A DNA stretch of 64,000 bases from a virus, in the IMG/VR virus record IMGVR_UViG_3300020474_000993; one strand, 5' to 3'. Position 1 is the first letter of the stretch. Each line of letters opens with the position of its first letter. The notes under the pieces were generated by a model. It saw only the letters and a list, made by a program, of their open reading frames with translations. It searched no databases and was not told where the DNA came from. Below, one piece after another: positions 1 to 3,191 of the stretch. A program made the translations under genes and the position numbers.

Positions 1-948
1 CTTTGGGTCTGGTGCCGGTAGTTTTTCTGGTGCTTGAATTTTAACATCTTTTACATCTACCGTTTGTGTAGTTGCTTGGCCATCTACTCCTGCTATAGTA
101 AGGTTACCCTTTGCAGATTGCACTACAGGTTTACCACCATCTTTTGTAGTACCAACAACATCTGGAGTTGGAGTTGGTGTTTTAGGTTTACCACTGGGGT
201 CTAACTTTGGCGCCGTTCCAGTTAGTTTATTTTTAGCTGCAACTACTGTTTTTGGTATCTTGGTTACTGCAACTGCTGCTGAGGTTATAAGTTTATCCAT
301 TCCTTTAAGACCATTCATAGCAGCGTCAACTACTGACAAAGCAGCTTTTGATATTCTTGCTCCTATGTCACCAAAAGCATCTTGCACACTTTCAGCAATT
401 GTCTCAACCTCTTTTTTATCATCATCACCAAAGAGAGAATCAAAGAAACCACCAGCAAACATTCCAGCTGCTAATCCTCCCACAGCTGCTCCTGTGGCAC
501 CTATTCCTTTTGAACCCCCAGCACTCATACCAAGTCTATTACGAATAGAATCTTCTGATTCAACTGCTGGCCCTTTCTGACCAGATAATCCAGAAGCCAT
601 TATTGCTGTGTCCCCTTTGATATTAACTAATACCTTTTCAATGTCTTGTAATTGATTTACTACTGGGTCTTTACTAGCAACATCTGATAAGGTTGAAGTT
701 GCCTGTGAAGCTGATACAGTCTGACCACCCGAAGACATTCCACTCCCGCCTTGAAAACCTGCCCCAACACCACCACTTCTACCAGCAGAATTTGCCTGTG
801 ATGGTTGTTGAATGTCGTTGCTGCCTCCAAAAAGAGCGTTACCTAATCCATATCCTGCTGCTGTTCTTGTTATCGATGTTTTACCACCTTGTTTAGCTGT
901 TGCTCTGCCTGCTGGTGCTATGAATCGACCCACCGCTGCTCCTAACAT
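1..948 (-). CDS. Probable tape measure / baseplate hub tail-length protein (gp29-like), runs off the window's left edge
   Basis: Not in ORF track because it is open at the edge. ATG at 948 with GGAGA SD, open frame to base 1 (MLGAAVGRFIAPAG...PAPDPK), Gly/Ala-rich; follows gp26/gp51 as in T4-like phages. Confidence 0.55.
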   Translation of the reverse strand, partial: MLGAAVGRFIAPAGRATAKQGGKTSITRTAAGYGLGNALFGGSNDIQQPSQANSAGRSGGVGAGFQGGSGMSSGGQTVSASQATSTLSDVASKDPVVNQLQDIEKVLVNIKGDTAIMASGLSGQKGPAVESEDSIRNRLGMSAGGSKGIGATGAAVGGLAAGMFAGGFFDSLFGDDDKKEVETIAESVQDAFGDIGARISKAALSVVDAAMNGLKGMDKLITSAAVAVTKIPKTVVAAKNKLTGTAPKLDPSGKPKTPTPTPDVVGTTKDGGKPVVQSAKGNLTIAGVDGQATTQTVDVKDVKIQAPEKLPAPDPK

Positions 949-949
949 T

Positions 950-1141
950 TTATTGTCTCCACTTATTAGACTTCATATCGTCTGCTTTCTTTTTTAAATG
1001 TTGGACTAACATTGAGATATATACTTGCCTTTCCCACGGAACCCAACTCTCTATTTCTGTTAAACTATATTTATGTTCTTGCATAAGTAGAAAGTTAGTT
1101 TTAAAGTAATTTTCCAAATTTTCGTGAAAAAGGCTTATACG
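950..1141 (-). CDS. gp51: gp51-like hub assembly segment, probably expressed as a -1 frameshift extension of gp26
   Basis: Hand translation RISLFHENLENYFKTNFLLMQEHKYSLTEIESWVPWERQVYISMLVQHL..., matching the NYxKTNFxLMQxHKYSLTE..PWER motif of marine T4-like gp51; no ATG before the conserved block. Confidence 0.8.
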   Translation of the reverse strand, partial: RISLFHENLENYFKTNFLLMQEHKYSLTEIESWVPWERQVYISMLVQHLKKKADDMKSNKWRQ

Positions 1142-1836
1142 AAAAAATCGTAATATCCATTTAAATAGGTTATATTACTCTTTTCGCATTTAGGGCATTT
1201 ATATTTAATCTCATTTTCCATTACAGGCATTGATTCAAAAAACTGTTTGAAGGCTTTGAATTGTTGAGAAGTAAGGTTATCAATAAACTCTGTTTTATCC
1301 TCTTCTTTTAATTCATCAGCATCCACGATACTGTCGCCAGAAAATATCGTTTTCATACACAATTGTGCAACTTTAAACACATCACCTTCTGTTTCTGATT
1401 TACCCAACATCGTCATTTCTTTTGCATTGGGATATCTCATTTCAACCGATACATTTTCAGAGAGTCTCACGGTTTTTTCGTGACCCTCTGTTTCGTAAAG
1501 TTCAAAGTTATTCAAATCAACGATGATGTCAATTTTGTGTTCACAATGACCACACCGAAGTATTGCCTCTATTGTTTCTGATACTGAGACCTTTCTTAAA
1601 TTTAAGAAGATATTCTGCATATCAAACACTGGAAGTTCATCTCCATGAACTTTACCAAAAGAACAGTTAGTGATGATTTGTTGTGTTGCTTTCATCATCT
1701 CCTCCATATCTTTTGTTTCGTTTGCTAGAATAAGCAATTTCTCTTCTTTAACTAGGAAAGGTCTGAATTTTACACTCTTGTTAAGAGTGTGTACATGAAC
1801 ATCTATCAGTGGATGTTCTGTCTGTGGTAGTGCCAT
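1135..1836 (-). CDS. gp26: Baseplate hub assembly protein gp26 (paralog 1)
   Basis: MALP start at 1836 with GGAGG SD; FRPFLVKEEKLL, CxxC pairs (CGHC, CPKC), MRYP, ends DFFV. Confidence 0.9.
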   Translation of the reverse strand: MALPQTEHPLIDVHVHTLNKSVKFRPFLVKEEKLLILANETKDMEEMMKATQQIITNCSFGKVHGDELPVFDMQNIFLNLRKVSVSETIEAILRCGHCEHKIDIIVDLNNFELYETEGHEKTVRLSENVSVEMRYPNAKEMTMLGKSETEGDVFKVAQLCMKTIFSGDSIVDADELKEEDKTEFIDNLTSQQFKAFKQFFESMPVMENEIKYKCPKCEKSNITYLNGYYDFFV

Positions 1837-1850
1837 ATTATCCTCCAAAC

Positions 1851-2534
1851 CTATTCCGAAAACGCCATATACCCATTCATCATATTGGTATTTGTCGTTT
1901 CGCACTTTTCACAATTAAAAACTATTTCATTTTCAACAACTGGTATTGTTGCAAAAAATAAACTAATTTTGTTGAATTCTTTTTTTGTTAAGTTGTCAAT
2001 AAAACTTTCTTTTTCTTCCAATGGAATATCAGATATCATTTCGCCATTGTACTCTACTTGTTCAATACATAAGGATGCGATATCAAAAAAATCTATCATG
2101 TTATTGTTTTGTTGTTCTTGTAACATTGACGCGGTAGGATATCTCATTACCAATTTCAAGTCATCTGTTATCTTTATGACATTAGTGTGTCCCTCAACAA
2201 GATTCATTCTAAAATTATTTAAGTCAATGTCTACAGTATTGAATTCCTCACACTCACTACACATTATGTTGTATTGTAGTGGGTCAGTTTCAGATAGTAT
2301 ATGTAATTGAATCCAAATATATTGCATATCGAAAATAGGCAAAGTATTCGCGTCTACTTTACCTAAAGAACAATTAGATATACATTGAGATATGTTTTCG
2401 AGTAATTTTTCTTTACTTTCATCTGAAGACTCAATCAGTCTTTCTTCTTTAACTAAGAATGGTCTAAATTTTATTTCTTCATCCAAAGAAGAAACATAAA
2501 TGTCCGTCAAAGGGTAATCCGCCTTTGGTAACAT
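1851..2534 (-). CDS. gp26: gp26-like paralog 2
   Basis: FRPFLVKEE, LPIFDMQYI, CSEC/CEKC, MRYPT; colinear with paralog 1. Confidence 0.85.
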   Translation of the reverse strand: MLPKADYPLTDIYVSSLDEEIKFRPFLVKEERLIESSDESKEKLLENISQCISNCSLGKVDANTLPIFDMQYIWIQLHILSETDPLQYNIMCSECEEFNTVDIDLNNFRMNLVEGHTNVIKITDDLKLVMRYPTASMLQEQQNNNMIDFFDIASLCIEQVEYNGEMISDIPLEEKESFIDNLTKKEFNKISLFFATIPVVENEIVFNCEKCETTNTNMMNGYMAFSE

Positions 2535-2558: not shown

Positions 2559-3191
2559 TTAATCCAAAGCATCACTAATACTGCCTAGAATTTTACTGTT
2601 TATAGCATTTTTAACACTTCCTTTACGAAGACTAAATATACCAAATAACTTTTCTGCTTCACCAGCATCAACACCCCTAGATACCCATCTCCTAAATGCA
2701 AATGTTACATTGACTCGTACAATACCTTCCGCACTTTGCCCCATAGGTAAGATATTCATAAGTCTTGGGAACGCATCATAGAGTTTCCATCGTGTTACTC
2801 TATTGTCCTCTCTATCCAATGCAAAAATTTCTACAGTACCAGTATATTCATCTGGAAAGGTTACTTCTTTTGATAGTGGGTTAGCTATTTTGGTCATCCA
2901 ATCCTCAAAGTATGTTCTTACATCCCAATTAGAATCACAGAAAAAAGTAAAAGCTGCTGTGTCACCAAAATATTCTATACCATGTGCTCTATGTTCTACC
3001 CAACTACCAATTTGAGTTGACGCATACTTTATTTGCAAGCCTGGAATCTGTGCTTCTTCAACTTGCAACGAAACTTCTCTGTCGGTTAAAAAATTAGCAG
3101 GACTATTAATGATTACCTCAAATCTATTAGACCTAGCAAGGTCATCTTTTCTGACCTTGGATATAAAGTCGTTTGTTTTAAAATATGCCAT
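2559..3191 (-). CDS. gp54: Baseplate tail tube initiator
   Basis: LARSNRFEV, AFP..., tube-like (gp19 family) motifs; synteny with gp2/gp4. Confidence 0.8.
   Translation of the reverse strand: MAYFKTNDFISKVRKDDLARSNRFEVIINSPANFLTDREVSLQVEEAQIPGLQIKYASTQIGSWVEHRAHGIEYFGDTAAFTFFCDSNWDVRTYFEDWMTKIANPLSKEVTFPDEYTGTVEIFALDREDNRVTRWKLYDAFPRLMNILPMGQSAEGIVRVNVTFAFRRWVSRGVDAGEAEKLFGIFSLRKGSVKNAINSKILGSISDALD

Follow-up and report, generated by a model that had tools for sequence, protein, structure and literature searches.

The window analysed here, the whole stretch of 64,000 nucleotides in the virus record IMGVR_UViG_3300020474_000993 of an uncultured marine T4-like phage, contains a T4-type structural module with a DNA end protector, a tube-like gene, gp48, a gp5-like gene, gp6, sheath, portal and large terminase. 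In this neighbourhood lies a gene on the minus strand (1836..1135; ATG at 1836, TAA at 1137-1135) for a putative short-form chaperone of 233 aa, which is called gp26 in the annotation of its relatives and copy B in the following. It is preceded by the SD sequence GGAGG (1846-1842, minus strand) and ends GAT TTT TTC GTA TAA. Read directly, this 3' end holds the slippery heptamer T TTT TTC (1147..1141, minus strand), its phase relative to the 0 frame being X XXY YYZ. Downstream of a stop at 1177-1175, the −1 frame stays open through the heptamer and provides an extension of 63 codons (1141..950, minus strand), running from CGT at 1141-1139 to CAA at 955-953 and followed by TAA at 952-950, that reads FFRISLFHENLENYFKTNF...PWER... 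and corresponds to the gp51 block of other phages. All ATGs of this frame in the window lie at or after the Met of a conserved LMQ motif, and a TTG at 1117 has no SD sequence. With a shift of −1 on the heptamer, the gene is predicted to encode a long form of 232 + 63 = 295 aa with the junction ...NGYYDFF/RISLFHENL...; the predicted tryptic junction peptide of this form is SNITYLNGYYDFFR, and its short-form counterpart is SNITYLNGYYDFFV. A weak AU-rich hairpin (1130-1110, minus strand; UUUUC.CGA paired with UUG GAAAA) begins 10 nt 3' of the heptamer.

Upstream of copy B, a tandem paralogue, copy A (2534..1851, minus strand; 227 aa), matches PF12322 with an E-value of 5e-39 and ends in NGYMAFSE and a stop, with neither a slippery heptamer nor an extension. 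The gene upstream of the two chaperone genes in the same operon (2559..3191, minus strand) is tail-tube-like, of the gp19/gp54 type (phrog_45, E 4e-33), and its counterpart by position in S-PM2, ACG-2014e and S-CAM1 is a Phage_TTP_2 gene. On the other side, a single base separates the TAA of the extension from the ATG (948) of the next gene (1..948, minus strand), which runs off the window. The initial annotation had described the −1 frame as stopping one nucleotide before a gp29-like tape measure candidate; the one-base gap was there, and the likeness to gp29 was one of size and position. In relatives, the gene after the chaperone encodes 598-608 aa with a Gly/Ala/Ser-rich N-terminus (L107:1435-3228; L106:709-2508), a size similar to that of T4 gp29 (590 aa, PF25671). 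This protein of ~600 aa gave no match in Pfam, in PHROGs (E up to 5) or to T4 gp29 by hhalign, and a search of the ESM Atlas with it was uninformative. Because no family or profile match was obtained for the downstream gene, its identity as a tape measure gene is a guess from size and position. Genes 51 and 29 are not neighbours in T4. The gene at the same position in cyanophages encodes ~1000-1170 aa and belongs to PHROGs labelled 'endolysin' (Syn9 gp14, gp15).

Family membership and predicted fold

Copy B matches PF12322 (T4_baseplate) with an E-value of 1.1e-53 over profile positions 9-218 of 219, and phrog_150 with an E-value of 2e-55. PF12322 is matched by both T4 gp26 and T4 gp51, which are listed as hub assembly chaperones of unknown mechanism, and gp51 is reported to be required for assembly and absent from the particle (PMC3004832). 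The −1 extension matches phrog_634 ('baseplate hub assembly catalyst'; E 2.7e-24) and also positions 237-281 of phrog_150, that is, the C-terminal end of the very family that holds gp26. T4 gp51 (249 aa) consists of the PF12322 domain (aa 1-201, E 4e-52) and a tail that aligns with the −1 extension over aa 198-249, its last ~50 aa; the respective junctions are DVF/KLLVNPDEIF in T4 gp51 and DFF/RISLFHENLE in the predicted fusion of the window. T4 gp26 (208 aa), which has the domain but no such tail, terminates in GLKEFFELL and a stop, resembling the 0-frame product in this respect. A gp51-type long form, PF12322 with a contiguous tail, was thus found in the window, where contiguity requires a −1 shift. 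The label 'gp26' given to the open reading frame by the initial annotation consequently fits the short form, but the same frame also supplies the N-terminal portion of a long form of the gp51 type. Pairwise BLAST assigned neither copy A nor copy B to gp26 as opposed to gp51 orthology, and the tail alone discriminates between the two.

In T4, genes 26 and 51 are transcribed divergently, and both lack a slippery run (TTC TTT and GTG TTT). Whole-record searches found two PF12322 genes in T4 and one each in S-PM2, Syn9, phi-ST2 and phiN3. Taken together with the colinearity of T4 gp51, these counts suggest that one recoded gene outside the T-even group corresponds to the short and long paralogues of T4. 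Three metagenome proteins (P0097, P0036 and P0152) are in-frame fusions of PF12322 with the gp51 tail, be they natural or artefactual; in the precomputed annotation P0152 carries PF12322 and PF28602, the latter on the tail. A further protein, P0151, is an apparent chimeric call (PF03486 plus tail) from a contig of 623 nt.

Modelling of the short form with AF2 (pLDDT 90.4) gave an N-terminal domain of ~90 residues. Of 48,161 chains, the three that matched it best were 2ob9, the tail assembly chaperone (TAC) of HK97 (Z 6.8; rmsd 3.2 Å over 80 residues), and two TAC-like prophage proteins, 3fgx (Z 7.0) and YqbN, 3klu (Z 6.0), all below the tool's caution line of Z 8 and in a range where common arrangements can score. 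The remainder of the short form holds a CxxC...CxxC zinc ribbon, and the tail was modelled as a small three-helix domain (pLDDT 88). Foldseek searches of the PDB returned nothing for the 233-aa model and nothing informative for the 65-aa tail, and a sequence profile search of the PDB gave no match. The colinearity with T4 gp51, the N-terminal fold resembling that of TACs and the TAC identification relayed from published work (see below) support the proposal of the initial annotation that gp26/gp51 are the T4-type equivalent of lambda G/GT. Copy B is hence a supported candidate for a T4-type tail assembly chaperone gene and G/GT equivalent, as judged from its sequence and the structural model.

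Conservation of the junction

Loci for comparison were collected via the gp26 protein (15) and via the gp51 block (80), and were supplemented by annotated regions of S-PM2, Syn9, ACG-2014e, S-CAM1, Vibrio phage phi-ST2, Sinorhizobium phage phiN3, Pelagibacter phage Mosig and Ochrobactrum phage OC. In total, 102 loci were examined, of which 97 were unique, representing ~22 clusters at 50% protein identity. Every one of the 102 has the T6 run in the same phase and the gp51 block in the −1 frame, and among them are finished isolate genomes of four phage lineages. A +1 arrangement (U7 run, UUU_C) was seen in none of the 102. The comparison carries the significance of the heptamer, because TTTTTTC alone is not unusual in the AT-rich window (37 copies vs. 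30 expected). In the survey of 80 loci the heptamer reads TTTTTTC in 72 cases, TTTTTTT in six and TTTTTTA in two, and the 0-frame stop follows one codon after it in 73. Across the 97 unique sequences the entropy of the six T's is 0 bits, even though the 0 frame reads two of these T's as synonymous third positions. The X of the heptamer comes from AAT, GAT, AGT, TCT, CAT or GCT, a codon that ends in T in 97/97, whereas codon usage would give ~0.75; likewise, the first Phe codon is always TTT (97/97), against a prediction of 0.73 from usage. Codon-position entropy in the same sequences changes from 0-frame to −1-frame periodicity exactly at the heptamer, and the codon immediately after it varies like a −1-frame CGN (Arg) and not like a 0-frame codon. 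According to codon-position variability, both gp26 and the gp51 block are under purifying selection.

No conserved start codon or convincing SD sequence for gp51 exists among the 97 unique sequences, in which start-like codons are scattered. The first ATG of the −1 frame is codon 21, the LMQ Met, in 51 of them, and this Met is encoded by ATG in 85. Clear protein constraint in the −1 frame acts on the 20 codons that separate the heptamer from the LMQ Met. Initiation could hardly reach these conserved codons, because there is no conserved start or SD sequence and because a −1-frame stop lies directly 5' of the T run in ~14 of the 80 surveyed loci. The initial annotation had suggested aligning gp26 3' ends in search of a conserved TTTTTT(C/T) followed by a startless gp51 frame, and this is what emerged, with an invariant T6 and no conserved start. 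Its other statements about the sequence were confirmed as well, namely the in-phase heptamer, a −1 frame that is closed upstream and open through the heptamer to encode the gp51 block, ATGs only inside or after this block with no clear SD sequence, and predicted products of 233 and ~295 aa.

For the RNA downstream of the heptamer, RNAalifold yielded no single consensus structure from the 97 aligned junctions, because the hairpin register shifts between clades. Therefore, the 48 nt 3' of the heptamer were folded sequence by sequence and compared with synonymous-codon shuffles. In relatives this segment has a mean z of −1.74, with 48% of the sequences below −2, against −0.25 and −0.31 for two control segments. 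The hairpin of the window itself has −3.1 kcal/mol and a z of −0.15 relative to such shuffles. The hairpin arms vary by clade in a compensatory way (e.g. CTCTTCC/GGAAGGG, GCCTC/GAGGC and ATGGCTCA/TGAGTCAT in junction alignment A2), and in columns 14-40 of this alignment the position of the hairpin is kept while its register and arm sequence change between clades. The arm changes bring amino-acid replacements (e.g. E-G vs. E-N, paired with L-F/L-S codons). This pattern suggests a joint constraint on RNA and protein in the hairpin segment. An SD-like GGAG, GAGG or AAGG is found 11-15 nt upstream of the heptamer in 51/97 sequences, a count confounded by a conserved Gly codon; the element is absent from the window.

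Probable frameshifting and its alternatives

The reading that best accounts for this arrangement, to which we assign a probability of a little under 0.8, is a −1 ribosomal frameshift on the conserved TTTTTTC of copy B, by which the gene would give rise to proteins of 233 and 295 residues. Most ribosomes would stop at the TAA at 1137-1135 and release the 233-aa short form, presumably the counterpart of T4 gp26 and of lambda G. On U UUU UUC, a fraction would slip by one base in the 5' direction, the tRNA-Phe in the P site moving from UUU to UUU and that in the A site from UUC to UUU. The sequence U UUU UUC permits cognate re-pairing of both tRNA-Phe, and H_HH.U_UU.Y ranks with the −1 motifs of highest efficiency in E. 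coli (Sharma et al., PMC4066793). Slipped ribosomes would continue with CGU AUA AGC... and add the 63-residue tail, predicted to form three helices; the resulting 295-aa long form would be the equivalent of T4 gp51 and lambda GT. We infer from these features that the slippage is ribosomal and not transcriptional, as we infer its efficiency and a G/GT-like action of the two forms on the tape measure and the tube or hub.

The main rival is transcriptional slippage, in which RNA polymerase would add one U on the T6 run in some transcripts and thereby produce the same 295-aa fusion. It would agree with a signal whose invariant core is a homopolymeric T run, and with the eight T's seen in 4/80 loci. 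However, 74/80 loci have a run of exactly six T's, a length below that of the runs known for efficient transcriptional slippage. Moreover, the X XXY YYZ phase does not vary, relatives are enriched for a hairpin located 6-10 nt downstream, a hallmark of ribosomal −1 shifting, and ribosomes of E. coli slip with high efficiency on heptamers of this motif (PMC4066793). We regard a transcriptional origin of the fusion as unlikely.

Alternatively, two proteins could be made independently, as GenBank assumes: gp26 would terminate normally, and a small gp51 of ~44-55 aa would start at the TTG at 1117 or at the LMQ ATG. GenBank records do carry gp51 frames of 37-58 aa, the LMQ Met is mostly ATG, as stated above, and an ATG overlaps the 0-frame stop in phi-ST2 and phiN3. 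Yet the annotated starts differ from record to record (the product has 37, 47 and 57 aa in S-CAM3, Syn9 and S-PM2, respectively), and a gp51 is missing altogether from the records of ACG-2014e and S-CAM1. This explanation also leaves the −1-frame constraint on the 20 codons before the Met, which come with neither a conserved start nor an SD sequence, unaccounted for, and in T4 gp51 the tail is fused in frame. Separate initiation therefore appears even less probable than slippage during transcription. In phi-ST2 (L020:1495-1510) and phiN3 (L021:1474-1500) the T6/T7 heptamer is kept and the overlap takes the form TAATG and TGATG; judging by these sequences, the tail of these two phages might be made both fused and free. 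The notion of a decayed gene or sequencing error, in which a gp51-type long gene was broken by a 1-nt homopolymer deletion, can be rejected although the break falls in a homopolymer and a few in-frame metagenome fusions exist (P0097, P0036, P0152), because the arrangement is universal (102/102 loci, including the finished isolate genomes of four lineages) and both parts are under purifying selection.

Ribosomal frameshifting would explain the inconsistent annotation of 'gp51' across the records of T4-like phages. None of the GenBank records examined contains a joined or slippage CDS, and the 'gp26' and 'gp51' frames are to be annotated as one recoded tail-assembly-chaperone gene. The idea as such, put forward in the initial annotation, has precedents. 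The authors of PRFect, citing Vladimirov, Gautam and Davidson (Virology 2022;566:9-15), state that T4-like phages have two TAC genes, one of them short and the other longer and fused (PMC10885494), and the same 2022 publication is the source given in the phage Adele paper for −1 slip signals of the poly-T type in 'TAC-N genes of T4-like phages' (PMC12846349). To the extent that these two papers relay that work, the T4-like chaperone pair and its poly-T signal appear to be published already, and the window appears to be a new example that had not been annotated; database annotation lags behind the published principle. The value of the present case therefore lies in the confirmation by quantitative comparison, in an AT-rich example with a weak hairpin, and in a clade-specific tandem copy that has no slip site. 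A less likely possibility is that the 2022 work held T4-like phages to be generally non-frameshifting, in which case the invariant heptamer and the hairpin would contradict it.

The tandem copy and comparison with known systems

Copy A lies directly upstream of copy B, to which it is 39% identical, and among 105 loci such a tandem copy is confined to the clade of the window. In relatives copy A ends GGA TTT TTC GGT GAA..., and the five T's of this sequence may be a remnant of the slippery run. A maximum-likelihood tree places the A copies in one clade (100/99) on a long stem, next to the B clade; both belong to a 100/100 group in which the single-copy locus L025 is the sole other member. Support for joining A with B is itself weak (89/45), and very long branches lead to the T4 rows. 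The situation looks like a lineage-specific duplication that left one copy as a short-form-only gene, a partial and independent parallel to the two genes of T4. One tentative scenario, which we consider possible but somewhat doubtful, is that the recoded gene was duplicated in tandem and copy A then lost the slippery run and the tail, becoming short-only like T4 gene 26, while copy B continued to make both forms by slippage, so that the route taken by T4 would have been repeated halfway. If this were true, the ratio of short to long form would be under selection strong enough for tuning by gene dosage and recoding, and the two-gene state of T4 would have come from a frameshifting ancestor by the same route.

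Among the closest known counterparts is the T4 pair itself: PF12322 is present in both gp26 and gp51, and gp51 has the same C-terminal tail as the −1 extension. In T4, however, the short and long forms are encoded by separate, divergently transcribed genes, whereas the window has one gene with putative recoding plus the adjoining short-only copy. Similarity to the HK97 chaperone 2ob9, 3fgx and 3klu extends over residues 1 to ~90 with moderate Z-scores, and the remaining 140 residues of the window protein have no TAC counterpart in these structures.

Beyond these, the lambda tail assembly chaperone genes G and GT reportedly rely on a −1 frameshift (Levin 1993; Xu, Hendrix and Duda 2004; reviewed in PMC5009743). 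The lambda heptamer, G GGA AAG, differs from that of the window. As in lambda, the chaperone gene of the window stands in a tail operon beside a tube-like gene and a large gene of tape-measure size, but there is no sequence similarity, and the T4-type protein has an extra C-terminal half that contains the zinc ribbon. The myovirus P2 is said to produce its tail chaperones gpE and gpE+E' (Christie et al. 2002, J Bacteriol 184:6522) by a −1 shift on a run of six T's, like the shift proposed here, and to have this site just before the tape measure gene. The P2 heptamer is T TTT TTG; the gpE family is said to be unrelated in sequence to the chaperone of the window. The G-T frameshift has been stated to be conserved in long-tailed phages 'except T4' (Atkins et al., 2016, PMC5009743). 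With copy B as a candidate recoded gene for both forms, this region connects gp26 and gp51, the hub chaperones of T4, with the G/GT logic that is universal among long-tailed phages.
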